From: a virus
Length of the DNA: 42,400 nucleotides
IMG/VR virus record: IMGVR_UViG_3300010371_000021
Coordinates: 1-42,400 of that record
Reading direction: 5' to 3' (one strand)
Of this stretch, positions 8,516 through 42,400 are shown one piece after another. Under the pieces are notes generated by a model. The model was given only the letters and a program-made list of their open reading frames with translations. It made no database searches and was not told the origin of the DNA. The number at the start of each line of letters is the position of its first letter. Within the stretch, counting starts at the first letter, position 1. Position numbers and translations under genes: made by a program.

Positions 8516-8696
8516 TGTAGAAGAAACGGAACATGATGTGACGATCACCTATACCCGTGCGGATGGTACTGGTAGTCACCAACGGTTTAACAAGTGGGAC
8601 TTAACAGATAAGTCACCCAAAGCAGTTGATAAGAATGCAGCTAAGGCCTTACGTAAACTAGCAGATAGAATTGAAGGAGCTACAACTAATGTCTAG
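8508..8696 (+). CDS. hypothetical protein (62 aa)
   Basis: GTG start with GGAG 8 nt upstream. Overlaps its neighbours by a few nt. Confidence 0.55.
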   Translation: MINVEETEHDVTITYTRADGTGSHQRFNKWDLTDKSPKAVDKNAAKALRKLADRIEGATTNV

Positions 8697-10314
8697 TTCA
8701 GGTATTCCCCCCCGAGAAGTCAAAGACCTCCAATACGGCCTGGACGCCCGCGCCACAGTCCTAGCCGGTGTAACCAAAGGCTACGAAGCCGTAAGTTCAA
8801 CGTATGGCCCTAGTGGTCAGAACGTCCTCCAAGGCATGCCGTTCGGTGATCCAGTCCTAACAAGAGACGGTGTAACCGTTGCCAAGCGTGTAGTACTAGA
8901 AAACCGCGCCGAAAACGATGCCTGGTCTGTCGTCCGTCAAGCTAGTGAGAAGACCAACAAGACTGCTGGAGATGGCACAACTGCCACTGTAGTATTGGCC
9001 TACAATCTCTATAAAGCCGCACACCAACGCGTTGTAGCCGGTGAAAATCCGATGAAACTCAAAGCTCAGATGGCTGAAGATAGCCGCAAGGTGATCGAGT
9101 TTATCAAATCTAAGAGCGTAAAAGCTGATAAACACCTATTAGAAGTAGCCACGGTGAGCTCTGGTGACCCAAACATTGGTGCGTTAGTCTCAGATGTTAT
9201 GCAGGAAATTGGCCTCAACGGTGGCATTACTATCCGTGAGCAGAACTACCCAACAATTGACGTTGAAAAGATCAACGGTTATTACTTCGACCGAGGCTTT
9301 TTCGCCCTAAATCAACAGATCGAGTGGGCAAAACCTCACATTCTAGTCACCCAAAAGCCCCTGACGGCTGCGAGTGACGTACTGCCTCTTATCCAGATGA
9401 TCAACCAACAGACTGAGAAGAAGTTGGTGGTTATCGGTGAGGTTCGGGGTGAGGCACTACAGATTCTACTTGCCAACACTATGGCGCAGGCAGATAGTCA
9501 GGGTCGTCCAGTCCCATTTGAAGGTGTTGTCGTCCCTCCACCGATGTATGGTGAGGAATCCAAGCTATTCATGGAAGACATTGCCATCTATACCGGTGCT
9601 AAAGTATTAACTGATGCAGAGACCACGATCAGTGAGAGCCATTTGGGCAGTGCAGAAAGAGTTCAGGTTTCCCAAGAACGCGCAATCGTATTCAAGGGCA
9701 AAGGAAACGCTGAGGCTATTAGCTCACGGGCCGCTGAGATCAAGAAGAACATCGACAAAGAGACTAACTCGCACGCCAAGGACCAGCTAGAGCAGCGTTA
9801 CAGCAAGCTCGTTGGTAAGATCGCCATTGTAAACGTTGGCGCCTCTACTCAGACAGAGATGGAAGAGCTACGCTTCCGTGTCGAGGATGCTATTGAGGCT
9901 ACTAAGAGTGCTATGGCTGATGGTGTGTTACCTGGTGGTGCCACGGCATTAGTACACGTAGCTTACCTAACAAACCCCACGACCGGACCCGATAACAAGA
10001 ATGTCTTTGGTGGTATATACCCGCGGCCTGCGATTGATACGCTGTTTAGAGAGGCTCTACTCGACACCTTTAAAAAGCTTTACGACAATGCTGGTGAATC
10101 ACCTGACTACAGGGTTAAGCAGATACAGGCTAGTAAATTTGGTATGGGATTCAACCTCCGCAACATGACCGAAGAGCCCATAGACCTAGCCAAGGCAGGC
10201 ATATGGGACGCCACTCGTGCAGTCGTACAGACCATTGAGAATGCAACGAGCGCTGCAGGTGCTCTCCTAACTGTAGGGGCGTTGGTGACGCCACGAGATG
10301 AAGAAGACGCTTAG
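8689..10314 (+). CDS. groEL: GroEL-like chaperonin (Cpn60 family)
   Basis: ATG at 8689 after a GAAGGAG SD. Contains YGPSGQNV, TRDGVTVAK, AGDGTTATVVLA (GDGTT motif) and VEDAIEATKSAMADGVLPGG. About 541 aa. Ends ...PRDEEDA without a GGM repeat tail. Confidence 0.93.
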   Translation: MSSSGIPPREVKDLQYGLDARATVLAGVTKGYEAVSSTYGPSGQNVLQGMPFGDPVLTRDGVTVAKRVVLENRAENDAWSVVRQASEKTNKTAGDGTTATVVLAYNLYKAAHQRVVAGENPMKLKAQMAEDSRKVIEFIKSKSVKADKHLLEVATVSSGDPNIGALVSDVMQEIGLNGGITIREQNYPTIDVEKINGYYFDRGFFALNQQIEWAKPHILVTQKPLTAASDVLPLIQMINQQTEKKLVVIGEVRGEALQILLANTMAQADSQGRPVPFEGVVVPPPMYGEESKLFMEDIAIYTGAKVLTDAETTISESHLGSAERVQVSQERAIVFKGKGNAEAISSRAAEIKKNIDKETNSHAKDQLEQRYSKLVGKIAIVNVGASTQTEMEELRFRVEDAIEATKSAMADGVLPGGATALVHVAYLTNPTTGPDNKNVFGGIYPRPAIDTLFREALLDTFKKLYDNAGESPDYRVKQIQASKFGMGFNLRNMTEEPIDLAKAGIWDATRAVVQTIENATSAAGALLTVGALVTPRDEEDA

Positions 10315-21218: not shown

Positions 21219-22097
21219 ATGGCTGACACAAAAACCACTGGCCTAACGAGTCGGGGTACCCCTGATAGGGCGAACGATATTCTCATGGTCGTCAACGGTT
21301 CGTCGAACTACCAATCGACAGTTAATAACGAACTGGGTATTACTGGTGCGCCGGTTGGCACAACGGATTCCCAAACACTTACGAACAAGGTTCTGACGTC
21401 ACCGACCATATCCGGCCCTACACTCTCTGGAACGATTGCCGGTACATACACCATAGGTGGCACACCAACGTTTCCGGCTACAGTTGTACTAACGAGCGGC
21501 AACCAGACTATAAGCGGAACAAAAACCTTCTCCGGCTTAGTGGCGTCAACACCGACACTAACAAACGCAAGTATTACACAGGATTCAGTGGTCGGATTTA
21601 CTACCGCCAACAACGGCACCGTCTATGGCGTCACAATAACCGGCGGCCAAATCGGTAGCACAGGGTTAGCTACAAATGCAGTACAAGGCAATCAGCTAGC
21701 CACAAATGCCATAACGCTTGGGTACGCACAGATAACTAGTAGCTTCGTGCTCAGTGCTTCACAGACAACGCCTACGCAGGTTACGGGCCTGACATCGACG
21801 GTAACTATACCTGCAGGAAACAGGAAAGTTAAAATCACAGCCTTCTGCGGGAACTTGGTACCCGCTGGTGGCGTCTGCAATCTGAGTATCTGGGACGGGA
21901 CAGTAAACAGCGGAACACAGTTAAACTCGGCCAACAGCTGGAGCACCTCTGGCGGTGGAGTAGTAGCTATTGCTGTTGTAACGCCAAGCGCTGGATCAAA
22001 GACATATAATGCTGGAACCGTGAACACTGGTTTGAACAACGTAACCGTCACTGCATCAACCACTCAGCCAGCTTTTATACTTGTTGAGGCAATATAA
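21219..22097 (+). CDS. tail fibre-like protein
   Basis: The DSQTLTNKVLTSPTISGPTLSGT motif is typical of phage fibre shafts. Thr/Gly/Ser-rich. Confidence 0.65.
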   Translation: MADTKTTGLTSRGTPDRANDILMVVNGSSNYQSTVNNELGITGAPVGTTDSQTLTNKVLTSPTISGPTLSGTIAGTYTIGGTPTFPATVVLTSGNQTISGTKTFSGLVASTPTLTNASITQDSVVGFTTANNGTVYGVTITGGQIGSTGLATNAVQGNQLATNAITLGYAQITSSFVLSASQTTPTQVTGLTSTVTIPAGNRKVKITAFCGNLVPAGGVCNLSIWDGTVNSGTQLNSANSWSTSGGGVVAIAVVTPSAGSKTYNAGTVNTGLNNVTVTASTTQPAFILVEAI

Positions 22098-23008
22098 TGC
22101 TAACGTTTACTGACCAAATCAATCTTTGCAAAGAGATTAGTAATCTTTCTGACGCCACAAGTGTTATCAATTTCAAGCGTGATGTAAACGCTGGCACCGC
22201 TCGCTTTTTATCTAAGCTTAGTCGTCCTGTAGATCGCCAGAGTCGTTTTACGGGGTCTGTTGCTAACCAGCAGTACTACCAGTACCCAGAAGATGCTATA
22301 CGACCTTCACAGGTGATTTATCTGACAGGAACGAACATTTGGATACCACTTATAGAAGTTGGCGACGAAAGAACGTGGCGTCGGATGAACCAATATCCAC
22401 AAACTAGCTCGCAGCCAACACATTTCTTCGTGAGAGGTGGAGATGAGGTTGGCATCTACCCTATTCCATCTAATACGACGGCAGACGGTATAGAAATGGT
22501 CTTCGAACCACGGCACGTGCTTTTAACGGCCGATGACTATACGACCGGTACTTTAGCCATTACAAGCGGCCAAAATACGATTACCGGTACTGGTACTACC
22601 TTTACCTCAACAATGGCCAATGGAAGTTACGTTTTACAAGTTACAGATGGGACAGATGGCCGTTATTACAAGGTTAGCGCCTATTCTAGCTCAACGAGTC
22701 TAACGATTGAGAACTATTACCAAGGAATCACGACTGTTTCTGCGACATACCGAATTGGTCAAGTCAGCAATATCCCCGAAGAATATCAGGAAGCACCGGT
22801 GGACTACGCTATGTATCGTCACCACTTAGGTAAGGGGGAGCTGGAAAAGGCTAACGAGTTCAAATCTCTCTGGGAGGGAAGCCTCGAAGACTGTGAGAGC
22901 ACGTATGGCATGAGCACGAGTAATCAGATCGTTCTCGACAGCAGGATGCTCGGTGCAATGACGCCTAATCCTCTCTTGGACAGCTATTACAACCAGATTA
23001 GGACATAG
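22097..23008 (+). CDS. virion/tail structural protein (303 aa)
   Basis: TAATG-coupled start. Lies within the tail module. Confidence 0.75.
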   Translation: MLTFTDQINLCKEISNLSDATSVINFKRDVNAGTARFLSKLSRPVDRQSRFTGSVANQQYYQYPEDAIRPSQVIYLTGTNIWIPLIEVGDERTWRRMNQYPQTSSQPTHFFVRGGDEVGIYPIPSNTTADGIEMVFEPRHVLLTADDYTTGTLAITSGQNTITGTGTTFTSTMANGSYVLQVTDGTDGRYYKVSAYSSSTSLTIENYYQGITTVSATYRIGQVSNIPEEYQEAPVDYAMYRHHLGKGELEKANEFKSLWEGSLEDCESTYGMSTSNQIVLDSRMLGAMTPNPLLDSYYNQIRT

Positions 23009-24961
23009 ATGGCCAGCAGAGGGAACGACACTGATTTCGTAGGCCTGCCAAGCTTCATAGGTGGTGAGAGCCAGGACAGTAAGTTCGGCACGAAGTACCA
23101 GTACGACTATGGACGTCATATTGACGTCCGCAAAAAGGCGTCTGGTTTTAGCGTTTTGCCAGGTACCTCTAAAGCATCGGGGGGTGTTGTCACTGACCTT
23201 GTGCAGGATATGACGCAGATACCTAACGGAAATCGTTACGCCCTTGGCGATAGTGGAAATGTATATTTAGTAAGCACGGCTGGTGTGTGGAGTAAGATTG
23301 GTAACATTGGCCAAAACGGTGGTGCCGGTATTCTTTATCGCCCCGACAATGACTGTATCTACATTACGGGCCAGACGAAGATTGCTCGCATTAAATCTGT
23401 TAGCACAACACCGTTTTTAGACGTAAACTGGTTTCAGTACGGTATATCTACTGCAACCACCTGCTCCAAGAGTGGAGGTACAGCTACATACACACTCCCA
23501 CAGACAATAGGTGAGCAAGCTAGTGACATGCGCGCCTTTATAGCTGATATCGAGCCACTCATACGTATAGGTGTAAAACCTACAGTTGCCACCGGTAACT
23601 GGACATTGACCTTACACGATGACGCTAATAATCTTCTAGGGTCGGTAACTATTGCTGCTGCGAACCTTGTAGTGGGTCAGATAAACTATTTCACCTTTAA
23701 CACGCCAGTTCGGCTGTATATATCTGTTAATAACTTTACTTCTAGCTCAAGCGGTGGTCGAACATACCATTTTCACTTAACATCAAGCGTAACAGGTGAC
23801 AAGGTACAAACCACGACTGCTAATTCACTCGCAGATTGTGATATGGAGCTATGGGCCAATGCATTAGTGCAACCAAACAACGGCCTACACCCAATATATT
23901 CATTCGCTCAGTTCACGTTATTTGGCAATGAGAAGTACGTGGCCGCTTACGAACCATTACAGGACCAGCCCACCACATCGGACTTCCAACGTCATCGTCT
24001 AACGTTTCCGTCAGGTTACGAGACGAACGGAATTGCCCAATTAGATTTGTACGCTGCCATAACAGCTGAGCAACGCTCTACGAACACTACACAAGACTAC
24101 CAGAGTGGCAAGATGTTCCTGTGGGATGCTATTCAGACGACATATAACCGTTACTACGATATTCCTGAGGGGAGCCCAGAAGGTATATTCAGCCACAAGA
24201 ACGTCATATCGTTTATAGCTGGTGGGGCGCTCTATCAGTCTAGTGGTGGCCAGCCTATCAAAGTTAGGACGATACGCAACACAGACAGCGAATTCTCCAA
24301 CATAGCCGACTCTACCCACCTCTACCCACACATGATGACCGTACGTCGAGGTATCTTGCTTATAGGGTATCCGAGTTTCACTACTAATCAACTTCTTGAA
24401 CATGCCGTGTATGGGTATGGAACGCGGTCAAGCCAGTACCCACTCAGCTGGACCACAAGTTATACCATGTCGACGGGTAGCATTTTGAACAATGGTACGA
24501 ACAATCTGCGCTTAGGCATGGTTAAGAACAATGGTGACACCCTATACATATCATGGCGTGATGACAGTACAGGTACCGCGACATACGGCGTTGACGTGGT
24601 AAACAATAGCTCCGCACCAGCAAGCGATTTCCAAGTGCATATGCTACATTTCGACCAAGACGCGCCGTATAAGGAGAAACTGGCTAAGAAGGCGCTCGCC
24701 GTCTTCGACACCCTCCCTGACGATAAAAGTGTGTCACTACGTATGTGGTATCGTTTAAACAATGGAAGTCGCGTTTATTCTACTGATGATGGTACCCCTT
24801 ATGTTACTTCTGGCAATGTTGTACAGATAAAAATTCCCCAACAATTTATAGATATGCAAATAGGTTTGGAGGGCACTATAACAGGTACGATTAGTCCCTT
24901 CTGTCACGGTATATACTTAGCCTTCGATCCAGAGACATTACGTAACGAGGTGAGCCAGTAA
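23009..24961 (+). CDS. large tail structural protein (650 aa)
   Basis: Long ORF immediately after the preceding stop. Confidence 0.8.
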   Translation: MASRGNDTDFVGLPSFIGGESQDSKFGTKYQYDYGRHIDVRKKASGFSVLPGTSKASGGVVTDLVQDMTQIPNGNRYALGDSGNVYLVSTAGVWSKIGNIGQNGGAGILYRPDNDCIYITGQTKIARIKSVSTTPFLDVNWFQYGISTATTCSKSGGTATYTLPQTIGEQASDMRAFIADIEPLIRIGVKPTVATGNWTLTLHDDANNLLGSVTIAAANLVVGQINYFTFNTPVRLYISVNNFTSSSSGGRTYHFHLTSSVTGDKVQTTTANSLADCDMELWANALVQPNNGLHPIYSFAQFTLFGNEKYVAAYEPLQDQPTTSDFQRHRLTFPSGYETNGIAQLDLYAAITAEQRSTNTTQDYQSGKMFLWDAIQTTYNRYYDIPEGSPEGIFSHKNVISFIAGGALYQSSGGQPIKVRTIRNTDSEFSNIADSTHLYPHMMTVRRGILLIGYPSFTTNQLLEHAVYGYGTRSSQYPLSWTTSYTMSTGSILNNGTNNLRLGMVKNNGDTLYISWRDDSTGTATYGVDVVNNSSAPASDFQVHMLHFDQDAPYKEKLAKKALAVFDTLPDDKSVSLRMWYRLNNGSRVYSTDDGTPYVTSGNVVQIKIPQQFIDMQIGLEGTITGTISPFCHGIYLAFDPETLRNEVSQ

Positions 24962-26180: not shown

Positions 26181-26567
26181 ATGATCATACCGAGTAAGCT
26201 TGCAGCAGCTAGTACCTTGGGAGGATTTAAAAACTATTTGTCAAGTAGTTTTTCAGTTAACGTGCCGACACAGAACGTTAATGCGGGTAACTTTATATCA
26301 TTTACGGCGTCTACAGCGCTATCTAACACTAATTCCATATCTCAAGTTCAGATACAATATAATGGTCTGTCTACTGACTACTACATTATGAACGGGTCTG
26401 TGACTACTGTCTGGTCAGCTGGTGCCCTACAAGTGCAATCCTACTACTCCTTCACCCCCACAACCCTCTCCGTCTTCACTGTCCTGGTGAACCAGAGTGG
26501 GGGGGTGTTGAATGTACCCAACATCACCATAAACTGCCGGGGATTCTTGTTCTTAGCGCCGTTCTAG
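26181..26567 (+). CDS. tail-associated protein (128 aa); its 3' part contains repeat copy 1
   Basis: ATG directly after the preceding TAG. Ends with TAGTAG, overlapping the convergent gene's stop in CTAG. Confidence 0.7.
   Translation: MIIPSKLAAASTLGGFKNYLSSSFSVNVPTQNVNAGNFISFTASTALSNTNSISQVQIQYNGLSTDYYIMNGSVTTVWSAGALQVQSYYSFTPTTLSVFTVLVNQSGGVLNVPNITINCRGFLFLAPF
26434..26510. repeat. 77-bp perfect direct repeat, copy 1
   Basis: Identical to 28019-28095 (TGCAATCCTACTACTCC...GGGGGGGTGTTG). Contains a G7 run at 26499-26505. Confidence 0.95.
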
Positions 26568-27073
26568 TAGCGAGGCTCGCTGAATAGACTGCAGCTGCCT
26601 TGATAATCAAAATAGTGGTAACCAATGGTCACACCGTCGCTACTGTGGAATGGATCAGTGTACTCTATCATGACAGGTGAAGTGAACAGCTTGTCGTAAT
26701 CGTCGTAGTTATACCCCTCGGAGCCCAACATTTTGTTCACACAAATGAACTGTGCAGCGAGTTGGTCACCTGTTATTCCGTGGGATATTGCCAGGTTTGT
26801 TACATAATCTTTTAACTTTTGCTTGTTTTGGTCGGGTGTAGGTGCGGACGGGGCAGTCTGTTGTGCCTCTACAGGCGTCACAGGAGCCGCAGGAACCGTT
26901 TCAATGGGTTTTGACGTAGTTAGTGGGGTTTCACTAGTATCGGGCGTTGTAGAGGCTGATTTTACGTCAGAAGCGACTTTTGATGTCGACTTATGCGTAT
27001 TAGTCGCAAAAACTGCGCCTGTCCCCAGTGAGAGGACTGTGAAAACGGTAATAATTAGGTAAATCCGTCTCAT
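26564..27073 (-). CDS. secreted protein with signal peptide, Pro/Thr-rich linker and Cys-containing C-terminal domain
   Basis: MRRIYLIITVFTVLSLGTGAVFA signal-like N-terminus, a P/T/S/A linker and a YTDPFH motif. Confidence 0.75.
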   Translation of the reverse strand: MRRIYLIITVFTVLSLGTGAVFATNTHKSTSKVASDVKSASTTPDTSETPLTTSKPIETVPAAPVTPVEAQQTAPSAPTPDQNKQKLKDYVTNLAISHGITGDQLAAQFICVNKMLGSEGYNYDDYDKLFTSPVMIEYTDPFHSSDGVTIGYHYFDYQGSCSLFSEPRY

Positions 27074-27106
27074 TTGTATCTATGATAGTATAAAAAATAT
27101 AGGTTG

Positions 27107-27427
27107 TCAATAGCAAGTTGTGTCTGTGAACTGGTTCTTTATCCCGTACGAATATGACGAGCAATAGCTTGGTGCCCTCTGCACCTGTGGGACAGAAGTT
27201 ACAGAAGAACAGTTCACATAGATGTGGAATGGGTCGTAAGTTGGGCAGTTCCCCGTATACGTTGTTTCTGGGCCCCTATTACTGCCCTTTAAATACCCGA
27301 GCTTGAATCCAGCATTTTCTCCAGCGCTATATGCCGATTTATAGATGTAGTATTTCGTTGTATAGAATGTTCCCGCGATCGTCGCCACCAAAACGAAAGT
27401 CGTGATTACGAAAAAGATTTTCTTCAT
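27107..27427 (-). CDS. small membrane-anchored/secreted Cys-rich protein
   Basis: Preferred start is MKKIFFVITTFVLVATIAG (ATG at 27427). Contains a PTYDPFH motif and 5 Cys. Confidence 0.7.
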   Translation of the reverse strand: MKKIFFVITTFVLVATIAGTFYTTKYYIYKSAYSAGENAGFKLGYLKGSNRGPETTYTGNCPTYDPFHIYVNCSSVTSVPQVQRAPSYCSSYSYGIKNQFTDTTCY

Positions 27428-27435
27428 TATTGTAT

Positions 27436-27444
27436 AATATACCA
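27436..27444 (-). promoter_or_regulatory. extended -10 promoter TGGTATATT, 8 nt upstream of ATG 27427 (leaderless candidate)
   Basis: The minus strand reads TGGTATATT-ATACAATA-ATG. No SD. Confidence 0.4.
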
Positions 27445-27544
27445 CTTAACAGATGACGAAGATTATTTGACAACTGCTTCTACCAACCTTTGTTTTGCTT
27501 CACCTCTGTTACGGACGTCGTAGAATCAGCATTGTGCGACATAA

Positions 27545-27778
27545 CTACTTCAAATTACGGCTTTTCATGACATTGTCGCACAGTTTTACAAAGGCGTGGC
27601 CTGGATTGTTTGACTTACGTAAACAGTAGTCCAGGAGCTCTTCTATGTCTTTTTCACTCAGTTTTTGAACTATGAGCGCTACGAAACGGTGATCTAATGT
27701 GGAATCGTGTAGTTTTCTCTGTAACCTTTCAGTCTGTACCTCGATAATCGATTGAGCTAACGCAGCTTCCTTGATCAT
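27545..27778 (-). CDS. small helical protein (possible regulator); start uncertain (27778 ATG or 27877 GTG)
   Basis: ORF 27545-27877. The C-terminal ..EELLDYCLRKSNNPGHAFVKLCDN.. resembles ..MELVNKARKSGNDPQRLFFWMLKN.. of 36492-36776. Confidence 0.5.
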   Translation of the reverse strand: MIKEAALAQSIIEVQTERLQRKLHDSTLDHRFVALIVQKLSEKDIEELLDYCLRKSNNPGHAFVKLCDNVMKSRNLK

Positions 27779-28018
27779 CGATTGTTTAGAGAGTGGGTGA
27801 TTGCTGAAGTCCACTTGCTTTCTCTTTCTACCCGTGCTAGGATGAAGACATCTCTGTAGACATCCCCAAGGTAACACTTGGGGTTTTCTTTACACTTTTT
27901 ATGCAACTGACGGATAGCACGTGTACTTAGGGCTCTCCGTGGGCTAGTCTGATTCTCTGTAGACTATACTTGCCTACATTTAATCACAAGTTAACGCACT
28001 GAACAAGTATTTTACCCC

Positions 28019-28095
28019 TGCAATCCTACTACTCCTTCACCCCCACAACCCTCTCCGTCTTCACTGTCCTGGTGAACCAGAGTGGGGGGGTGTTG
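28019..28095. repeat. 77-bp perfect direct repeat, copy 2
   Basis: Identical to 26434-26510. G7 run at 28084-28090. Confidence 0.95.
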
Positions 28096-28128
28096 GGGAT
28101 TCTGTGGATAGCTAGTATAGTATGGATT

Positions 28129-28941
28129 ATGACCCCTACAGCAAATCTTCCATCTGCTCAGGATGCCCTCACTACGCTCAACAGTTTCCAGCAACCAGAC
28201 TCTGGGAGCCTCTTGTCCGCTGCTCAGCAAAAATATGGCGTTCAGGGCTTGCAAGACCGTGTTAACACCTACAAGACACTCACCAATAACCTAACTGGTG
28301 CTATATCTGCAGTAGACCCATCTGTCACCGGCCGTACGGCCGGTAGCCTTGTTACCGAAGGTCAACGCAGCGCGTTGGTTGATCGCGAGCGAACACCACT
28401 AGTCGGTCAGTTAGGCACGGCTCAACAGGGTGAGTCCGAGGCCAACAACGACTTAGGCAAAGCCGAAACCGATGTCAATAACGAGGTATCCTCTCAGAAA
28501 CAGGATGCCCAGAATAAGTACAATCAGCTACTCCAAACCTACCAAATTGCTAACGAGCGCGAACAGAGCGCCGCCCAAGAAGCAGCGGACGCAGCGAAGC
28601 AGAAAGAGGCTATACGCGAGTTTGATGTTGGACAGGCTAATGATCTTGCCAAATCAGCCGCGGGCCGGGCAGCATCTGCTCCTAACCCAGCTGCTGGTTA
28701 CAGCGTCAAACAGCTTACTAGCGGTAACAAGGCGTATACAGGACCGAATGGGCAGACTAACTTGTATCAGTATGCGTCGGCGATCGCAGGGGGTGATCCA
28801 AACGGCACTTATAATGAGATTTTGGGCCAACTTAAGACGGGTTCACCAACTGATAAGGCAGCTTTCAACAAGGTTGCGAAGATGTCAATGCCCGACGCAA
28901 TCAATTACCTCAAAACGCATAATAGCTACATTTTTGATTAA
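28129..28941 (+). CDS. internal-virion/tail-associated protein (270 aa); GTG 28072 inside the repeat is an alternative start
   Basis: ORF 28072-28941. ATG at 28129 (MTPTANLPS...) lies just beyond the repeat. Confidence 0.7.
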   Translation: MTPTANLPSAQDALTTLNSFQQPDSGSLLSAAQQKYGVQGLQDRVNTYKTLTNNLTGAISAVDPSVTGRTAGSLVTEGQRSALVDRERTPLVGQLGTAQQGESEANNDLGKAETDVNNEVSSQKQDAQNKYNQLLQTYQIANEREQSAAQEAADAAKQKEAIREFDVGQANDLAKSAAGRAASAPNPAAGYSVKQLTSGNKAYTGPNGQTNLYQYASAIAGGDPNGTYNEILGQLKTGSPTDKAAFNKVAKMSMPDAINYLKTHNSYIFD

Positions 28942-28943
28942 CT

Positions 28944-30749
28944 ATGCCGACGTACGACCCATTCAATATCCGTGGTGGCACAACTGCCACAGCTACAAAG
29001 GGCAGTACCAGCTCGAACTTTATTGGGGGCACCCCAAAGTCTAATGTAGGCCGCACCTATGATCCATTTGGTATAAACCAAAGCACTTTGCATACACCAA
29101 CTGCTTCAGCGACTAATAATAGCAGTCCAAAAAATCAAAATAATAAACCAGCAGGCTCGAGCCTATTCAGCAAAGTAAAGAACGTCGTTAAAGGGGCGGC
29201 TAGTGACGCCAAGACAACACTTGTAGATAAGCCTCTTAACACGTTAGCAGCTGGGGCTAGTGGCGTTATTGGTCTGGGTGAGGCTGGCGTACAGGCCGCC
29301 ACGGGCAACAAGAAGGGCGCGAAGACAACGCTAACCGCCACACAGGAAGCGGCGAATCAATTCCTTGATAAGGGCGTAGGAGGTAAAGGGGGTTTTCTTA
29401 ATTCCAAACAAGCCGCCTCTAGAGGAACCGGCGGTAAGGGTTACGTAAATGACTTTGTAAAACCAACTGCTCAAGGGGCGACTGATGTTTTGCCCTATGT
29501 CTTTCCAGCTGGTAAGGCAGCAAAGGGTGCAAGTCTGCTGGTCAGAGCTGGTAAGTCTGCTGCGAGTAATGCCCTAGTAAGCGGTGGAACTACTGCCGCC
29601 AATGAAGCAATCCAGGGTAATATAACTAAGGATGGTGGTAAAGAAATCGCAAAAAGCGTTGCATTAGGTGCCGCTCTTGGTGCTGGTGGATCTTTATTAC
29701 ATGGCGCAGCTAAAGAAGGCGTAGCACGCGTAAGCACTAAAGAGGCAAGCTCAGCGCTTAACAACGCCAAGACAAACACACTGCTGAACGCCGCAGATAA
29801 GAGTACCGAACCTGCTACTGTTTATAATCCGTCTAACCCAAAGGTGAAAGAGCTTGTGGAAGCTCGTCAAAATGAAGCTCAATCCCAGGCCGCACCCGAC
29901 CAGGCTGCCGACAAACAGAGGGCAGACGCTGTGGCGACTGCTGAAAAGAACCAGGAACAAGGTAAAAAGGTAGATCGCCAGATTGAGCTCATCCAGGCAA
30001 AGGGTAAAGACAGTGAGACGGGATTAAGCAATGTTGATAAGACCAAACTGAACCACTTACAAGAGGATAAGCAACAGCTGGAAGACAATACCAAGCAGAC
30101 TCTTGCCGCGACAGTGACACCTACTGAGCAAGCCGCTAGCCCTATCGAACACGTCGCCACTCCCGTACCTGATTCTTCCATTCCGAAAGAGGCACCTGAA
30201 CCACAGCCACAACAGGATAGAGGAGTTAGTAAAGTTGCTCAGTCTGTTCAAGAAAAAGCAGTTGCACGAGGACTCAAGAATGACTTCGGCGGTCCAGGTG
30301 GATATGACAAGGTGACGATCGCCGACCAGGCGGCTAAAGCCACGAAGGTCGCCAATGACCGCCCACTACTAGATAGCATTATAAACGGTGATAAACCATT
30401 ACCCGATGGCCTTCGTGCTACTGCTCTTATTAAAGCTGTTGAAGAACACCCTGTACTTGGGAAAGATCCAGAGCTTATTAATCGCTTGTCCCAAGCCGAA
30501 CATTTAACTGGCGAATCTAGCCGGTCGGCACAAGAGTTACGATTGGCGGCTGAACGCTCACCTACAAGTCCTGTAGAGGCGGTGAGACAAGTACGACAGG
30601 CTAGAGCTGAGGCTGTTGAACGCAAGACTGGGAAGAGTGTAAGTAAAGCGACGAGCGACGAGCTTAAGGCCATCCGAGCTGCTAAAGCGACTGTTCCAAA
30701 GCCAACTAAAGAGACATTCGCGAGCTTCGTCGATTCATTGCGCTGCTAG
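28944..30749 (+). CDS. large Ala/Gly/Lys-rich internal-virion (ejection?) protein with two N-terminal TYDPF motifs
   Basis: 601 aa. MPTYDPFNIRGG... and ...GRTYDPFGINQ. Confidence 0.75.
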   Translation: MPTYDPFNIRGGTTATATKGSTSSNFIGGTPKSNVGRTYDPFGINQSTLHTPTASATNNSSPKNQNNKPAGSSLFSKVKNVVKGAASDAKTTLVDKPLNTLAAGASGVIGLGEAGVQAATGNKKGAKTTLTATQEAANQFLDKGVGGKGGFLNSKQAASRGTGGKGYVNDFVKPTAQGATDVLPYVFPAGKAAKGASLLVRAGKSAASNALVSGGTTAANEAIQGNITKDGGKEIAKSVALGAALGAGGSLLHGAAKEGVARVSTKEASSALNNAKTNTLLNAADKSTEPATVYNPSNPKVKELVEARQNEAQSQAAPDQAADKQRADAVATAEKNQEQGKKVDRQIELIQAKGKDSETGLSNVDKTKLNHLQEDKQQLEDNTKQTLAATVTPTEQAASPIEHVATPVPDSSIPKEAPEPQPQQDRGVSKVAQSVQEKAVARGLKNDFGGPGGYDKVTIADQAAKATKVANDRPLLDSIINGDKPLPDGLRATALIKAVEEHPVLGKDPELINRLSQAEHLTGESSRSAQELRLAAERSPTSPVEAVRQVRQARAEAVERKTGKSVSKATSDELKAIRAAKATVPKPTKETFASFVDSLRC

Positions 30750-30771
30750 TTTATTGATAGGCTATAGTGTA

Positions 30772-30780
30772 TGATACAAT
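30772..30780 (+). promoter_or_regulatory. extended -10 promoter TGATACAAT upstream of the HNH gene
   Basis: TGnTAnAAT motif just upstream of ATG 30782/30791. Confidence 0.35.
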
Positions 30781-30781
30781 T

Positions 30782-31330
30782 ATGGAATTCATGCCAAAGG
30801 GCGTAAAAGGTTTTCAAAAAGGGCATCCTGTCCCTGAATCTGTTAGAAGGAGAGTTTCGGAAAGTCGAAAAGGTCATAAACAGTCGCCAGAGACGATAGC
30901 CAAAAGAGTCGCTAAGCTAAAAGGCAAAACTGGCCACGTGTGGACTGATGAACAACGTAAGGCGGCAAGATTGAGGGTCTTGGGTAGTAAACAGTCCCCT
31001 GAACTTATCGCTAAGCGTTTTGCGAGCAGAAGAGGTTACAGGCATTCAGAGGAAACAAGAAGTAGAATTGCTGAATCCCAGAAAGAAGAACGGTCTGCTC
31101 AATGGAAAGGTGATAAAGTTGGTTATCATGGTTTACATAGTTGGGTTTACAGGAAACTAGGTAGAGCCGAAATCTGTAGCAACTGTGACTCTACGATAAA
31201 TGTCGAATGGTCTAACGTAAGCCACAGTTATAAAAGAGACGTTAATGATTGGCAACAACTATGTGCCAGATGTCATAGGGCTTATGATAAAGGGAGAAAT
31301 GACATAAGACTTCTTTTTGGTGTAGTCTAA
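30782..31330 (+). CDS. HNH homing endonuclease with NUMOD3-type DNA-binding repeats
   Basis: Repeated H.QSPETIAKR / KQSPELIAKR / HSEETRSRIAES units (NUMOD3-like). C-terminal ...NVEWSNVSHSY..DVNDWQQLCARCHRAYD is the HNH signature. The start could be 30767, 30782 or 30791. Confidence 0.85.
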   Translation: MEFMPKGVKGFQKGHPVPESVRRRVSESRKGHKQSPETIAKRVAKLKGKTGHVWTDEQRKAARLRVLGSKQSPELIAKRFASRRGYRHSEETRSRIAESQKEERSAQWKGDKVGYHGLHSWVYRKLGRAEICSNCDSTINVEWSNVSHSYKRDVNDWQQLCARCHRAYDKGRNDIRLLFGVV

Positions 31331-31334
31331 GATT

Positions 31335-33299
31335 ATGCCCGCAGGGATTTGCCTTCCACCTAAAGTAGTCGATTCGTTCAAGCAAGCGCTTGTGAGCGGC
31401 AAGATAGTGCCCGAGAAGCTAGCTCAGATGACTAGCGAAGAGCGCCACAAATTGTTTAGTGATATCGTTGGTGAGGGGAATGCCCGATTTGTAAACTCAA
31501 CTTTTGAAGCAAAAACCTTACTTAAGGACCAGCAGGCCGGGTATTTAAGATGGGCCAAGAAACTTGTAGGTGTAACGCCCGAAGTAAAACGCGATCTGAT
31601 TACCCGCATCGGCAAACTTGACCATGTACTTAGCCCATCTGAAGAACGTAGCTTTTTGAAAGATTTGGCGGCCACAAAACTTGGTGTAGATGTTACTGCT
31701 GAAGAGGCGGCACATATTACCCAGCTAAGTAATAAACTCAAAGATCTGGCGGCTAAACAGAGATCCGATGGTACCTTTCCAACTGAGTCAGACCGTATGG
31801 CTTATGGTCGTGCTAAAGTGGGGTTCGGGTCACACTTGGCCGAGCTCAAGAACAATGCTAATAAACTGTCCATTAGTGAACAAGCTGCTCACCCGCTACG
31901 CGCCGCATCCAAAGTGGCAGGTCTCGCTAAATCGTTGAAGGCGAGCCTCGATAACTCTGCTGTATTCCGCCAAGGTTGGAAGACAATAGCAACAAATCCT
32001 TATATATGGCAAAAGAACGCTCGAAAATCATTTATAGACATTGCGAAACAGCTTGGCGGCAAAGACACCCTAAAGGAGGTACAGGCAGATATTGTCTCGC
32101 GTCCTAACTTTGACAAATACGAGAAAATGAAGCTGGCCGTTGGCAACGTAGAAGAGGAGTTCCCAAGTGGGCTACCTGAAAAAGTACCGGTACTCGGTCG
32201 GGCCTACAAGGCCTCTGAAGGGGCGTACACTGGATTTCTTTACCGCCAACGTGCTGATGTAGCTGATAAGATGCTCCAGATGGCCGAGAAGTCTGGGGTT
32301 GACATCACCGACAAGAAAGAGCTCGAAGCAATCGGTAAGCTGGTAAACTCCCTAACAGGCCGGGGAAACCTCGGCAGGCTTGAGGGAACAGCAGCGGATA
32401 GTTTAAACAACGTATTCTTCTCGGCTCGGTTTCTTAAAAGCAACATCGACACAATAACTGCTCACTCGTTCCAAAAGGGTGTTACACCATTCGTTCGTAA
32501 GCAAGCGGCACAGAACCTTGTTAAGATTGTTATGCTGAGTGCCGGTGTTATGGCAATAGCCAACTGGTTAAAACCTGGAAGCGCCGAACTAGATCCGCGG
32601 AGTAGTAACTTCGGCAAGGTAAAGGTTGGCCACACCACGTTTGACGTCACTGGTGGTATGGGATCAATAGCCACACTGGCTGCACGCATTCTTAAACAAT
32701 CGAGCAAGAGTTCAACAACTGGAATCGTAAGTAAGCTCAACTCCGGATACGGGTCACAGACTGGCCTTGATGTCCTGAATAGCTTCTTTGACAATAAACT
32801 CTCTCCAGCAGCATCAATCGTTAAAGATCTAATCAAGCAACAGGACTTCAACGGTAATAAGCCAACCCTTAAAGGCGAGGCTAGTAACTTATTTACACCG
32901 CTACCCGTTACTAATGTTGCGGGTAATAACGATCCCCATAGCGCTAATAAGCTACTCATTTCCATAGCTGATGGTCTTGGTATAGCCGCAAGTACCACGA
33001 GTCCACAACGTAGTGCTGACCAGAACTTGGCTAATAGTAAGACTCAACAGGCCTTCAAGAAGGCAGTCGGTGACGTCAGCTTTAAACAGGCAAATGCTGA
33101 CTATAACACCGAACTAAACGATTGGATGGCAGCACACCAGCAAGATCTCAATGCGTTGCCTCAGGACGAGCAGCAATCGACACTCACTGCGGTTAAAGGA
33201 AAGATTCAAGATAAAGTATATAAACAGTATAACTTTAAGCCACCTAAGCCACAGAAAGCTTCCGGTACCAAGAAGAGTTTACTGAGCTCAATACGGTAG
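31335..33299 (+). CDS. large internal-virion/tail protein with hydrophobic segment (654 aa)
   Basis: Long ORF with a predicted TM-like stretch NLVKIVMLSAGVMAIANWL. Confidence 0.75.
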   Translation: MPAGICLPPKVVDSFKQALVSGKIVPEKLAQMTSEERHKLFSDIVGEGNARFVNSTFEAKTLLKDQQAGYLRWAKKLVGVTPEVKRDLITRIGKLDHVLSPSEERSFLKDLAATKLGVDVTAEEAAHITQLSNKLKDLAAKQRSDGTFPTESDRMAYGRAKVGFGSHLAELKNNANKLSISEQAAHPLRAASKVAGLAKSLKASLDNSAVFRQGWKTIATNPYIWQKNARKSFIDIAKQLGGKDTLKEVQADIVSRPNFDKYEKMKLAVGNVEEEFPSGLPEKVPVLGRAYKASEGAYTGFLYRQRADVADKMLQMAEKSGVDITDKKELEAIGKLVNSLTGRGNLGRLEGTAADSLNNVFFSARFLKSNIDTITAHSFQKGVTPFVRKQAAQNLVKIVMLSAGVMAIANWLKPGSAELDPRSSNFGKVKVGHTTFDVTGGMGSIATLAARILKQSSKSSTTGIVSKLNSGYGSQTGLDVLNSFFDNKLSPAASIVKDLIKQQDFNGNKPTLKGEASNLFTPLPVTNVAGNNDPHSANKLLISIADGLGIAASTTSPQRSADQNLANSKTQQAFKKAVGDVSFKQANADYNTELNDWMAAHQQDLNALPQDEQQSTLTAVKGKIQDKVYKQYNFKPPKPQKASGTKKSLLSSIR

Positions 33300-36491: not shown

Positions 36492-36776
36492 ATGTCAACA
36501 GAATCTCTCAGTGAAACAGTTAAACATTACAGTGACAGTAATTTAAACATTAAAAACTACAGTGACAGTAAACACAGTAATATCACTGTAACAGACGTTT
36601 TTAAAAACTTAGTAGACGTAATCCCTAATGACGATTATATGCCTTACTACGTAAGTCGATTTAAACAACTAGGTTATACTAGATTTATGGAATTAGTCAA
36701 CAAGGCTCGAAAGTCTGGGAATGATCCACAACGCTTGTTTTTTTGGATGCTTAAGAACAATGAGTTAGTGAGATGA
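36492..36776 (+). CDS. hypothetical protein (94 aa)
   Basis: GAAAGG SD. The C-terminal motif is shared with 27545-27778(-). Confidence 0.7.
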   Translation: MSTESLSETVKHYSDSNLNIKNYSDSKHSNITVTDVFKNLVDVIPNDDYMPYYVSRFKQLGYTRFMELVNKARKSGNDPQRLFFWMLKNNELVR

Positions 36777-37768
36777 TAGACGAGATTATATCCCCAAGCT
36801 ACATGGTGGGTGGTTGTGTTAGGGACGTACTTTTAGGTCGTGAACCCAAAGACTGGGATTTTGCCACGCCCCTGTTGCCAGATGAAGTGGAGGCAAAAGT
36901 ACGGGCATCAGGTCGGAAAGCTCATATCACTGGCAAACGTTTCGGCACCATTGGCTTTAAGTTTGAAGATAAATTTGTCGAGGTGACCACTTTTAGGCAC
37001 GAAAAATATGGTAAAACGCGTAAGCCAGAAGTTCAATTCGTTACTTCGATTAATGACGATCTTGCACGACGTGATTTTACTATTAACGCTATTGCCAAGA
37101 GAGGCACAAAGATCATTGATCCATTTAATGGACGTGAAGATTTACAAATGGGGCTTATCAAGACAGTCGGTAAGCCTACAGAACGATTCAATGAAGACCC
37201 GTTACGTATGCTTAGGGCGGTTCGGTTTCAGGCACAGCTTGGGTTTATTATTGAAGAATATACGCTCGCCTCGATAAACAAGAATGCACATAAGATTCTG
37301 AGCATCAGTCGCGAACGGTGGATGCAAGAACTTGATAAGCTGCTTGTCGCAGATTACGTGGTTCTAGCTCTTCACACACTATTCGCCACAGATCTTATCA
37401 AGTTTTTGTTACCCGAACTCCGTATCCAGATCGGGTATGATCAGAATAGTGATTGGCACGAATATAGTTTAGCTGAACACACTATAAAGACTATTGGGGC
37501 TACTCCCGCTAGTACCACTTTACGTTGGGCCGCCCTATTGCACGATATAGGTAAACCTTTCGTACGTACTGATAATAAGCGTGGAAGTAGCAACTACGTG
37601 TTCCACGATGTTGTTGGTGCTGAAATGATTTACGGTATTGGAAAGAGGCTTAAATGGTCCAATGAACGCTTACAGATGATGCAAGAGCTTGTCAGAAACC
37701 ACCTAAGCGATGACAGCCCATTGCGTAATGCCGACAATTCAAGTAAACGTTTAGGAATAAAATTATGA
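36773..37768 (+). CDS. cca: tRNA nucleotidyltransferase (CCA-adding enzyme) with HD domain
   Basis: GGCVRDVLLGREPKDWDFAT (class II NTase G-box and DxD), RRDFTINA, and HDIGKP (HD). Confidence 0.9.
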   Translation: MIDEIISPSYMVGGCVRDVLLGREPKDWDFATPLLPDEVEAKVRASGRKAHITGKRFGTIGFKFEDKFVEVTTFRHEKYGKTRKPEVQFVTSINDDLARRDFTINAIAKRGTKIIDPFNGREDLQMGLIKTVGKPTERFNEDPLRMLRAVRFQAQLGFIIEEYTLASINKNAHKILSISRERWMQELDKLLVADYVVLALHTLFATDLIKFLLPELRIQIGYDQNSDWHEYSLAEHTIKTIGATPASTTLRWAALLHDIGKPFVRTDNKRGSSNYVFHDVVGAEMIYGIGKRLKWSNERLQMMQELVRNHLSDDSPLRNADNSSKRLGIKL

Positions 37769-39792: not shown

Positions 39793-40062
39793 ATGAGCTA
39801 CGTTCGAAACGCTAACACAGCAGACGAAGCTCAACCGATAACACTGCATCCAGCCGGCAACGGCTACGGCAACGGCTACGGCGACGGCTACGGCGACGGC
39901 TACGGCGACGGCTACGGCGACGGCTACGGCTACGGCTACGGCGACGGCTACGGCGACGGCTACGGCAACGGCTACGGCGACGGCTACGGCGACGGCGACG
40001 GCAACGGCTACGGCGACGGCTACGGCGACGGCTACGGCTACGGCGACGGCGGAATTCTGTAG
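39793..40062 (+). CDS. (Gly-Tyr-Gly-Asp/Asn)n low-complexity repeat protein (89 aa)
   Basis: ATG directly after TAG 39790-39792. A 21-aa unique N-terminus is followed by about 16 GYG[DN] units. Confidence 0.6.
   Translation: MSYVRNANTADEAQPITLHPAGNGYGNGYGDGYGDGYGDGYGDGYGYGYGDGYGDGYGNGYGDGYGDGDGNGYGDGYGDGYGYGDGGIL
39856..40053. repeat. 12-bp tandem repeat array (GGCTACGGCGAC)n with variants
   Basis: Read directly: about 16 units, with GAC/AAC and GGCTAC/GGCGAC variants. Confidence 0.95.
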
Positions 40063-40904: not shown

Positions 40905-41221
40905 CACCTACTTACCAGCAACGACTAGAAGCGATTCTACGCGGTATGCGCTTTAGCACTAATTTTGATAGCGTCTTAGAGAAGACTGCCGCTGACGACA
41001 AGGTGTACGCAGAGACGGTAGCTGCTATTAATGCACTGAATGTGGACACCTCGAGGCACATTTGCACTCTGCCCCTCAACATCGTCAACATATCCCGTAA
41101 AGACCTCGGTACTCCTACAGATCGAGTAGTCATAACCGATGAACAGGGCAATAAATACGTAAAAGTAAGTAAATTGAACACTGTTGATGCAGTTGTTCGG
41201 AAGGTGTTGGAGGAGATATGA
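40901..41221 (+). CDS. hypothetical protein translationally coupled to rtcB (106 aa)
   Basis: ATG at 40901 after a GGGGGAAAG SD. ATGA overlap with the rtcB start. Confidence 0.7.
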   Translation: MTPTYQQRLEAILRGMRFSTNFDSVLEKTAADDKVYAETVAAINALNVDTSRHICTLPLNIVNISRKDLGTPTDRVVITDEQGNKYVKVSKLNTVDAVVRKVLEEI

Positions 41222-42387
41222 TACAAATTAACAAAAAACTCTATAGCTGGGCCTCTATCATTGAGCCGAACACTGAAGCACAGGCCATCACGACAAGTAG
41301 TATGCCTTTCATATGGCATCACTATGCGTTAATGCCCGATGCTCATCTAGGTGCAGGAGCGACGGTCGGTTCGGTAATACCTACATTAGGAGCTATCATG
41401 CCTGCCGCCGTAGGTGTAGATATTGGTTGTGGAATGATAGCCATAAAAACCCAATTTACTAAAGAAGATTTAATACTTAGAGATTTAAAGACGCTACGCG
41501 AAAGCATCGAACGTTCCATCCCCCTATCCGCAGGTGCATACAATCTTGACATAAAAGAGACCGCTAAGTCTAAGATCACCGAGTTGGAGGCAAAGGCGGG
41601 CGACAGACTTAAATTCTACGATGGTTTCAAGAACGACTGGCGCGTACAACTTGGAACGTTGGGATCGGGCAATCATTTTATTGAGGTAAGTCTTGACGAG
41701 AAAGATAGCGTATGGCTGTTTCTACACTCTGGCAGTCGAGGTATAGGCAACAAGATAGCCACATATCATATCAAAATCGCCCAGGATTTGTGCAAACGTT
41801 GGTTCATACCACTACCTGACCCAGATTTAGCTTATCTTATAGACGGGACGAAAGAGTTTGGTAATTATATAACTGATCTGAATTGGGCCCAGCTCTTCGC
41901 GTTGCTTAATCGCGAAGAGATGATGGATAGACTTATTAACGATTTTGAGCATTGGATCGGTAGAAAAACTGAAGAACAAGAGAGGATCAATTGTCACCAC
42001 AACTTCACGCTCAAAGAGCATCATTTCGGCAAAGATGTGTGGTTAAGCCGTAAGGGTGCTATACAGGCAGATGCTGGGCGGCTGGGGCTTATTCCTGGGT
42101 CCATGGGTACTGCTAGTTACGTCGTGGAAGGTTTGGGTAATCATCTGGCATTTGATAGTTCTCCGCATGGAGCAGGACGCGTTTATTCACGTTCTGTAGC
42201 ACGCAGAAAGTTCACCTTTGATGATTTAGAAACGGCGATGGAAGGGATTGAGTACCGCAAAACAGATGCATTTCTTGACGAAATACCAGCGGCTTATAAG
42301 GATATCGACCAGGTGATGGAAGATGCAAAGGATTTGGTGAAGGTCAAACACACATTACACCAAATATTGAACGTAAAGGGGGATTAG
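41218..42387 (+). CDS. rtcB: RtcB 3'-phosphate/5'-hydroxyl RNA ligase
   Basis: PDAHLGAGATVGSVIP, VGVDIGCGM, GSGNHFIE, LHSGSRGIGN, CHHNF, PGSMGTASYVV and SSPHGAGR are all hallmark RtcB motifs. Confidence 0.95.
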   Translation: MIQINKKLYSWASIIEPNTEAQAITTSSMPFIWHHYALMPDAHLGAGATVGSVIPTLGAIMPAAVGVDIGCGMIAIKTQFTKEDLILRDLKTLRESIERSIPLSAGAYNLDIKETAKSKITELEAKAGDRLKFYDGFKNDWRVQLGTLGSGNHFIEVSLDEKDSVWLFLHSGSRGIGNKIATYHIKIAQDLCKRWFIPLPDPDLAYLIDGTKEFGNYITDLNWAQLFALLNREEMMDRLINDFEHWIGRKTEEQERINCHHNFTLKEHHFGKDVWLSRKGAIQADAGRLGLIPGSMGTASYVVEGLGNHLAFDSSPHGAGRVYSRSVARRKFTFDDLETAMEGIEYRKTDAFLDEIPAAYKDIDQVMEDAKDLVKVKHTLHQILNVKGD

Positions 42388-42400
42388 TATGACAACCCCA
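42278..42400. repeat. Terminal overlap: identical copy of 1-123
   Basis: See feature 1-123. Confidence 0.95.

Follow-up and report, generated by a model that had tools for sequence, protein, structure and literature searches.

Membrane proteins that block the entry of phage DNA, among them SieA of P22, Imm and Sp of T4, and gp15 of HK97, belong to one functional class. SieA lies in the inner membrane and blocks DNA injection, and mutations that escape it map to the ejection proteins gp16 and gp20 (PMC10883804). HK97 gp15 is an exclusion protein encoded by a moron (cited in PMC11436027). The ejection proteins of T7 and P22 are large and helical, with plastic or disordered parts and a mosaic pattern of conservation (PMC8954989). 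The virus record IMGVR_UViG_3300010371_000021 is a podovirus-like phage contig, and its positions 1 to 42,400 form the window analyzed here. The window encodes a probable ejection protein of 601 amino acids (aa) and, upstream of it, a minus-strand cassette for two exported-type proteins of 106 and 169 aa. The peptide TYDPF occurs twice near the start of the 601-aa protein and again, exactly or in altered form, in both cassette proteins. The distribution of this motif suggests, tentatively, that the cassette proteins may be exported decoys of a peptide that would join the phage's own ejection proteins. Exported accessory proteins beside ejection genes are already known, and so is exclusion at the step of DNA entry. 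A decoy of a phage's own docking peptide would be a novel variation on them.

The locus shares several features with these systems and differs from them in others. Like SieA, gp15, and Imm, the cassette encodes small membrane or exported phage proteins outside the late operon. Action at DNA entry is a proposal here, made by analogy with the sensitivity to SieA that maps to gp16 and gp20. The cassette proteins show no significant similarity to known exclusion or defence families in Pfam, PHROG, PADLOC, or NCBIfam, and the phage has no integrase recognizable in family-library scans. No exclusion protein known to us carries a copy of an ejection-protein peptide. As with gp14, gp15, and gp16 of T7 and gp7, gp20, and gp16 of P22, three consecutive large proteins (270, 601, and 654 aa) are encoded after the tail genes, although here an HNH gene has been inserted among them. 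The 601-aa protein, a putative virion component, is likewise predicted to be helical with a disordered part and shows mosaic conservation. The three proteins differ from those of T7 and P22 in belonging to no Pfam or PHROG family, and neither they nor the cassette proteins match a PADLOC or NCBIfam family.

The cassette also resembles morons. It is on the opposite strand with promoter-like sites of its own, it is absent from the related loci L001 and L002, and its G+C (GC) content is slightly lower than that of the flanks (39-46% against 48-54%). In contrast to typical morons, a convincing terminator was not found and the 169-aa gene seems to be an old resident of the site. Mimicry by short linear motifs is well known in eukaryotic viruses, and here likewise a motif of 5-8 residues from a conserved disordered region recurs in an unrelated protein, which could be a competitor for one binding site. 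However, the phage would be mimicking its own protein rather than one of its host, and the copy lies in a probably structured, Cys-bounded loop.

The paired motif and its protein family

The N-terminal motif pair is firmly established as a conserved feature of a large family of ejection-like proteins. The 601-aa protein begins with MPTYDPFNIRGG, and GRTYDPFGINQ follows after 35 residues. Homologues numbered 21 among 5.8 billion protein clusters, and a profile run against 1.84 billion representatives identified 3,454 family members at E<=1e-3. In the N-termini of the family a short aromatic motif stands directly after the start and again 17-37 residues downstream, and the two copies agree within a protein while differing between lineages. 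The pairs include YDPF/YDPF, YQSFF/YQSFF, IALW/ISVW, AIDAF/AIDAF, NPYDV/NPYNV, YDVF/YDVF, FAGLF/FAGLF, and KFDYL/KFDYL. The N-terminal 5-mer recurs downstream, at a BLOSUM62 score of at least 22, in 42% of 151 representatives compared to 1.8% of shuffled N-termini. The YDPF type of pair is present in 14 of 152 sequences with the consensus x-[Y/F/L]-D-P-F-[G/N/S]-[I/L/V/M/F], so the motif that an earlier note had singled out is retained in homologues of the 601-aa protein, and always as a pair. Within the 601-aa gene the two copies differ at four of five synonymous codon positions, and in the homologues the codons vary freely while the motif residues stay, indicating selection on the peptide and not on a DNA repeat. 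We know of no previous description of a family-wide, paired, and co-varying N-terminal motif of this kind.

The position and predicted structure of the 601-aa protein suggest that it is probably an internal or ejection protein, in agreement with the earlier note. Its gene follows those for the adaptor, nozzle, and fibre. In an AlphaFold2 (AF2) model based on the family alignment, which has low confidence with a mean predicted local distance difference test score (pLDDT) of 56, residues 1-72 are disordered (pLDDT 32-39) and the body is mostly helical. The family profile has a weak match (E=1.4e-4), restricted to a Gly/Ala-rich stretch of about 110 residues, to PDB chain 9vvp_L, a 1295-aa chain named 'Gp29' that is present as four chains in entry 9vvp. 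Four homologues (P0010, P0015, P0017, and P0021) have ParB-like (PF02195) or Zeta-toxin (PF06414) inserts between the conserved N- and C-terminal parts, suggesting that they carry effector cargo delivered with the DNA. In this they fit the polyvalent proteins of phages and conjugative elements, reportedly described by Iyer and coworkers in 2017; the Pfam scan found no such insert in the window protein. The C-terminus of the family (30747-30749 in the window) has the conserved sequence ...SF[V/I][D/E]SL[K/R]C, and its final Cys is invariant in 21 of 21 aligned sequences (the window protein and homologues P0002-P0021).

The variety of motifs bears on the possibility that TYDPF marks a shared site for processing, modification, or wall anchoring by an envelope enzyme, which would act on ejected and exported proteins alike. 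All three proteins are expected to cross the envelope, and Asp-Pro bonds are chemically labile. However, the family motif varies widely (YQSFF, IxxW, AIDAF, NPYDV, and others), which does not fit a single conserved enzyme site. In addition, family-library scans found no such enzyme encoded nearby, and the motif is absent from the exported proteins that relatives encode at the same site. A common enzyme site is therefore very improbable. A prohead-protease site was also considered and rejected, as the motif is found in no other head protein of the window.

Motif copies in the cassette proteins

The 106-aa and 169-aa proteins are firmly established as orphans with export-type N-termini. Both begin with basic residues followed by a 19-residue hydrophobic stretch (residues 4-22, Kyte-Doolittle mean 2.1) typical of a signal peptide or membrane anchor, as expected from the earlier note's proposal that they are exported. 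The 106-aa protein has four Cys residues in addition to this anchor or signal segment and is rich in Y and T. In the 169-aa protein a signal-peptidase-like site, VFA-T, can be seen by inspection, and a T/P-rich linker leads to a C-terminal domain with two Cys residues and the sequence YTDPFH. Among 5.8 billion clusters the two proteins found only themselves, and tblastn found no match in phage records. The search for cassette homologues turned up a 99%-identical variant (P0023) that has no contig on record. Paralogy of the two proteins was rejected, since BLASTP finds only DPFH in common. The third open reading frame (ORF) of the cassette encodes a soluble protein with no family or database match.

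Each of the two genes has a promoter-like site close to its start codon. The site of the 169-aa gene has 11 of 12 consensus matches. That of the 106-aa gene is an extended -10-like element read from the sequence; lacking a -35 element, it was missed by the consensus scan. The 8-nt spacing between these sites and the ATG codons suggests that the mRNAs are leaderless. No credible minus-strand terminator follows the 106-aa or the 169-aa gene. A plus-strand terminator-like hairpin lies inside the cassette at 27864-27893 (CCCCAAGGTAACACTTGGGG then TTTTCTTT). Two minus-strand copies of the 11-mer GTCTACAGAGA, one ahead of the third ORF (27964-27954) and one inside its start (27862-27852), may be operator-like sites.

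The motif is confined to this part of the genome. A six-frame translation of the contig contains [TY][YT]DP[FYW] four times, all within 26642-29075, and DPF only six times. The 106-aa protein contains GNCPTYDPFHIYVNC, in which PTYDPFHI (encoded at 27221-27244) lies between Cys61 and Cys73 (C-PTYDPFHIYVN-C) and matches PTYDPFNI, the first copy in the 601-aa protein, at seven of eight residues. The 169-aa protein contains IEYTDPFHSSDG, with YTDPF encoded at 26648-26662. Its copy, YTDPFHS, is weaker than that of the 106-aa protein, since only DPF matches the family consensus. At the DNA level TACGACCCATTC has just two exact occurrences in the window, one at 28953-28964 on the plus strand and one at 27227-27238 on the minus strand, and an inverted 12-mer match was seen in 1 of 100 shuffles. 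The inverted match extends to 24 nt with 83% identity, encoding PTYDPFNI in one gene and PTYDPFHI in the other. The peptides and coordinates given in the earlier note, including this inverted 12-nt identity, are all correct.

The chance statistics support the match in the 106-aa protein more strongly than the match in the 169-aa protein. The earlier note considered four occurrences within about 2.5 kb very unlikely by chance. As a general statement this goes too far, since the 601-aa protein inherited its two copies together as a single feature of the family and they are not independent events, but it does hold for the 106-aa match. The proteome used consists of 65 genes and 13.7k residues. 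With the motif fixed beforehand, the counts expected over the other 13,082 residues are 0.036 for YDPF, 0.003 for TYDPF, and 0.0001 for PTYDPF, while one of each was observed. Composition-keeping shuffles of the 106-aa protein gave YDPF with a frequency of 7e-4 and TYDPF with 8e-5, and those of the 169-aa protein gave values from 0.03 for DPF to 0.001 for [TY][TY]DPF. The 106-aa match is well beyond chance, and that of the 169-aa protein is suggestive only.

These numbers can be set against the alternative that there is no functional link. The cassette proteins would then be ordinary, fast-evolving exported accessory proteins, which perhaps exclude phages or modify the surface by other means, and the resemblance would be a coincidence that drew notice because an earlier reader sought shared peptides. 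Several observations favor coincidence and weigh against a decoy function. About eight other exact 6-mers are common to different, unrelated genes of the proteome (the 77-bp repeat described below being excluded), and when the 106-aa sequence was aligned by Smith-Waterman with the N-terminus of the 601-aa protein, shuffling gave only p = 0.01. The 106-aa protein has a composition rich in Y and T, and the 169-aa match is just DPF with T and Y swapped and without the following I or L. DPF is followed by H in both cassette proteins, whereas YDPF-type members of the family have G, N, or S there and never H. In addition, the related loci L003, L007, and L017 show no motif sharing. On the other side, the shared stretch coincides exactly with the only conserved element in a disordered tail of 70 residues, the expected counts of TYDPF and PTYDPF are very low, and two adjacent, mutually unrelated cassette proteins both carry DPFH when only one other DPF is found in the remaining ~12,800 residues. 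Overall coincidence appears rather unlikely.

Another alternative is that the 106-aa copy is a non-functional patch. The rearrangement behind the 77-bp duplication would also have placed an inverted copy of a short piece from the 5' end of the 601-aa gene in a young cassette gene, so that the likeness reflects descent and not selection. The codons for YDPF and I are identical in the 106-aa gene and the first copy (p ~0.01-0.04 by our own estimate, which takes codon usage as near-unbiased), the perfect duplication around the cassette indicates a recent local rearrangement, and the cassette genes have no homologues anywhere searched. However, the similarity is confined to 24 nt, and the codons for the flanking P and T differ, as does the H/N codon. 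The second, unrelated cassette protein has DPFH with a different D codon, and the copy is in frame and inside a Cys-bounded loop. An inverted patch of this kind is thus unlikely. A longer inverted duplication was rejected, since the similarity ends at 24 nt and there is no collinearity among the remaining, short inverted matches (I3-I5). Antisense pairing was rejected as well, because an inverted DNA repeat gives both mRNAs the same sense sequence.

Module exchange, the insertion site, and a possible decoy function

Sequence comparison of the related loci firmly establishes that the N-terminal tail of the 601-aa protein and the C-terminal domain of the 270-aa protein encoded before it form one recombination module, which spans the gene boundary over about 450 nt and is exchanged as a unit. 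Homologues of the 270-aa protein, which probably comes first in the set of ejection or core proteins, hold the same position in all related loci. The window was compared segment by segment with ten related loci by tblastn, and sequence types were set side by side for 11 loci. For the first 70 residues of the 601-aa protein, matches are confined to L001, L002, and L019 (54-70% identity), which are YDPF-type, or type A, phages. Its last 180 residues are closest to phages with other motif types (L004 84%, L007 65%, and L003 60%). Similarly, residues 191-270 of the 270-aa protein match only L001, L002, and L019 (63-69%), while its residues 1-110 match L003 best (78%). L021 joins type A by pairwise Smith-Waterman score; it has a type-A domain beside a YDPF N-terminus, and the C-terminus of its 601-like protein is closest to a type-B phage. 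Over the 11 loci the type of the upstream domain and the type of the motif correspond one-to-one (five of five for type A). The similarities of domain and tail are correlated (Spearman 0.61), and neither correlates with the C-terminal 180 residues of the 601-aa homologues (Spearman ~0). This co-segregation makes the upstream C-terminal domain a candidate partner of the YDPF peptides. To our knowledge the inheritance of such a motif together with the C-terminal domain of the preceding protein has not been described, and we do not know the combination of paired motif and co-inherited domain from T7 or P22.

The same comparison bears on the idea, raised in the earlier note, that the tail of the ejection protein and the exported proteins bind the same component of the host envelope, which the cassette proteins would then occupy. 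The shared motif and the export features support this as well as they support a phage-encoded partner, and the motif type differs from lineage to lineage, a pattern that tracking of different hosts would produce. However, the analysis found no specific support for a host envelope target. The motif type follows a phage-encoded domain and does not follow the tail-fibre-like genes, used as a stand-in for host range; in the window these genes match the type-D phage L003 and not the type-A phages. The type-A loci also range from 41.6 to 48.5% in GC. The fibre genes and the GC range together are a mild argument against a host-specific partner. A common host target is improbable.

The site of the cassette is firmly established, by comparison of related loci, as a hot spot that repeatedly acquires opposite-strand genes for exported proteins. 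In L001, L002, and L018 the tail gene is directly followed by the 270-aa homologue, with no gene at the cassette site. In L003, L007, and L017 the same site has different opposite-strand genes, whose products have a signal peptide or anchor and a Cys-containing ectodomain. In L017 the sequence TTGACA-17-TATCAT is followed by 7 nt and then ATG, the same arrangement as in the 169-aa gene of the window. We know of no earlier description of a hot spot for opposite-strand exported proteins.

In L003 (8259-8900, minus strand) the public gene call of a 140-aa protein is truncated, and the frame extends upstream to the signal peptide MNKRNLLIAGVLVIALSVTGVTMA. The extended protein is related to the 169-aa protein with a shuffle p of 0.007 and is probably a fast-evolving counterpart of it, so the 169-aa gene seems to have been at the site for a long time. 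The YTDPFHS of the window aligns to LLPTTNP in this counterpart, so the motif of the 169-aa protein is lineage-specific. Next to it in L003, a 133-aa protein (8744-9145, minus strand) is rich in Cys and His and by eye resembles small zinc-binding nucleases or DNA-binding proteins.

The cassette lies between the two copies of a perfect 77-bp direct repeat. The left copy belongs to the 3' part of the 128-aa tail gene; the right copy, a partial extra one, lies just upstream of the 270-aa gene and shares its reading frame. The listed ORF start of the 270-aa gene (28072) falls inside this second copy, and a later ATG was taken as the start. If the two copies recombined, the cassette would be lost and the 128-aa gene would be joined to the 270-aa gene. 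A Logan contig from an independent run (L020, SRR6185312) corresponds to window positions 26481-28048 and ends 30 nt inside each repeat copy, the pattern expected with an assembler using 31-mers, as we assume. An artefact of assembly was considered as a source of the repeat; breaks at both copies are expected for a true repeat and for a population polymorphism alike.

The co-inherited module and the exported cassette proteins may be connected through superinfection exclusion. TYDPF would be this phage's version of the family-wide paired docking peptide. Its two copies would dock onto the upstream C-terminal domain, or would bind a shared partner instead, during assembly of the internal core or of a conduit across the envelope. 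The cassette would consist of stand-alone accessory genes (morons), each with a promoter-like site, for a membrane-anchored 106-aa protein and a secreted 169-aa protein. At the outer face of the membrane these would display the near-copy PTYDPFHI, in its Cys-bounded loop, and the degenerate copy YTDPFH. The decoys could capture the docking domain of ejection proteins from an incoming phage with the same type of module, and the capture would abort conduit assembly and exclude the second phage at the step of DNA entry. In its outcome this would be comparable to P22 SieA, for which target specificity maps to ejection proteins (PMC10883804). Judged on the sequences, decoys with a phage-encoded partner are the most probable of the readings considered, though the proposal is a tentative one. 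The complete account, in which exported decoys of the peptide joining the phage's own ejection proteins cause exclusion and the paired motif and upstream domain form a specific interface, is somewhat more doubtful.

Further results weigh against the decoy proposal, in addition to those that favor coincidence. The pattern is seen in one genome only, and the window is the only locus where a real neighboring gene shares the N-terminal 5-mer of the 601-like protein. No exported neighbor shares its own phage's motif in L003, L007, or L017, and no neighbor gene does in L001, L002, L004, L005, or L018. Three YDPF-type relatives with enough flanking sequence have no cassette and no further YDPF in the sequence examined (~19.5 kb each for the type-A phages L001 and L002). 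The link depends on a single genome and failed the only comparative test available. The co-segregation of domain and tail could be plain linkage of neighboring DNA, a single-sequence AF2 model of the 169-aa protein was poor, and the phage has no recognizable integrase.

If the decoy proposal is true, it provides an exclusion rule that can be read from sequence, in which phages with the same motif type form one exclusion group, and it defines a peptide-domain pair in a family of more than 3,400 ejection proteins. The mutual recognition of podovirus ejection proteins is poorly understood, as is the way in which exclusion proteins stop them. Three results stand without the decoy idea: the paired motif, its co-inheritance with the upstream domain, and the insertion hot spot.

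Genome and gene neighborhood

The contig is probably a complete phage genome. Bases 1-123 are identical to 42278-42400, indicating a circularly closed assembly with ~42,277 bp of unique sequence, and nearly all genes are on the plus strand. The recognized genes encode the small and large terminase subunits, a GroEL-like chaperonin, an SU10-type adaptor, a CHAP-domain lysin, a CCA-adding enzyme, and RtcB, while neither an integrase nor a DNA polymerase was recognized among the window genes in family-library scans. A chaperonin is also encoded by the relative L007. No close relatives were found by megablast and tblastn against GenBank phages or by a single-protein scan of IMG/VR, and a scan of GTDB genomes found no prophage relatives. 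Alignment-based scans found one locus in IMG/VR and eight in metagenomes, mostly short and distant. The features are listed in Table 1.

Table 1. Coordinates of motif copies, genes, and other features in the window
Feature	Positions	Strand	Remarks
GroEL-type chaperonin gene	8671-10314		
SU10-type adaptor	22097-23008	+	
650-aa protein	23009-24961	+	After the adaptor
128-aa tail gene	26181-26567	+	Last of the fibre-like set
77-bp perfect direct repeat, left copy	26434-26510	+	
169-aa orphan protein	26564-27073	-	Signal-peptide-like N-terminus MRRIYLIITVFTVLSLGTGAVFA
Promoter-like TTGACA-17-TATCAT	27082-27110	-	Ends 8 nt before the 169-aa ATG
106-aa orphan protein	27107-27427	-	112 aa from GTG 27445
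Extended -10-like TGgTATATT	27436-27444	-	8 nt upstream of the 106-aa ATG
Third cassette ORF	27545-27877	-	110 aa from GTG or 77 aa from ATG 27778
77-bp repeat, right copy	28019-28095	+	
270-aa protein	28129-28941	+	Directly upstream of the 601-aa gene; ATG 28129 taken as start
C-terminal ~80-aa domain of the 270-aa protein	28699-28938	+	Sequence type co-segregates with the motif type of the 601-aa protein
601-aa protein, probably internal or ejected	28944-30749	+	ORF
Type A N-terminal module, ~70 aa of the 601-aa protein	28944-29153	+	Resembles YDPF-type phages only
Motif copy 1, TYDPF	28950-28964	+	Residues 3-7, in MPTYDPFNI
Motif copy 2, TYDPF	29055-29069	+	Residues 38-42, in GRTYDPFGI
HNH/NUMOD3 homing-endonuclease-like gene	30767-31330	+	Between the 601-aa and 654-aa genes
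654-aa protein	31335-33299	+	Third large protein of the 270/601/654-aa set
CCA-adding enzyme with HD domain	36773-37768		
RtcB RNA ligase gene	41218-42387		

The 650-aa gene is followed by three small fibre-like genes. The homing-endonuclease-like gene is an insertion specific to the window, as the 601-aa and 654-aa genes directly adjoin in L001, L002, L003, L007, and others. Elsewhere in the genome, a tandem array at 39855-40051 contains 16.4 copies of the 12-mer CGGCGACGGCTA with 93% matches; it encodes (TA)n in one plus-strand frame and overlaps ORFs on both strands. Two small adjacent plus-strand genes (100-441 and 550-966) share the exact 6-7-mers KSALTR and QLEAELE in the same order, and their sequences suggest that they are probably tandem paralogues.

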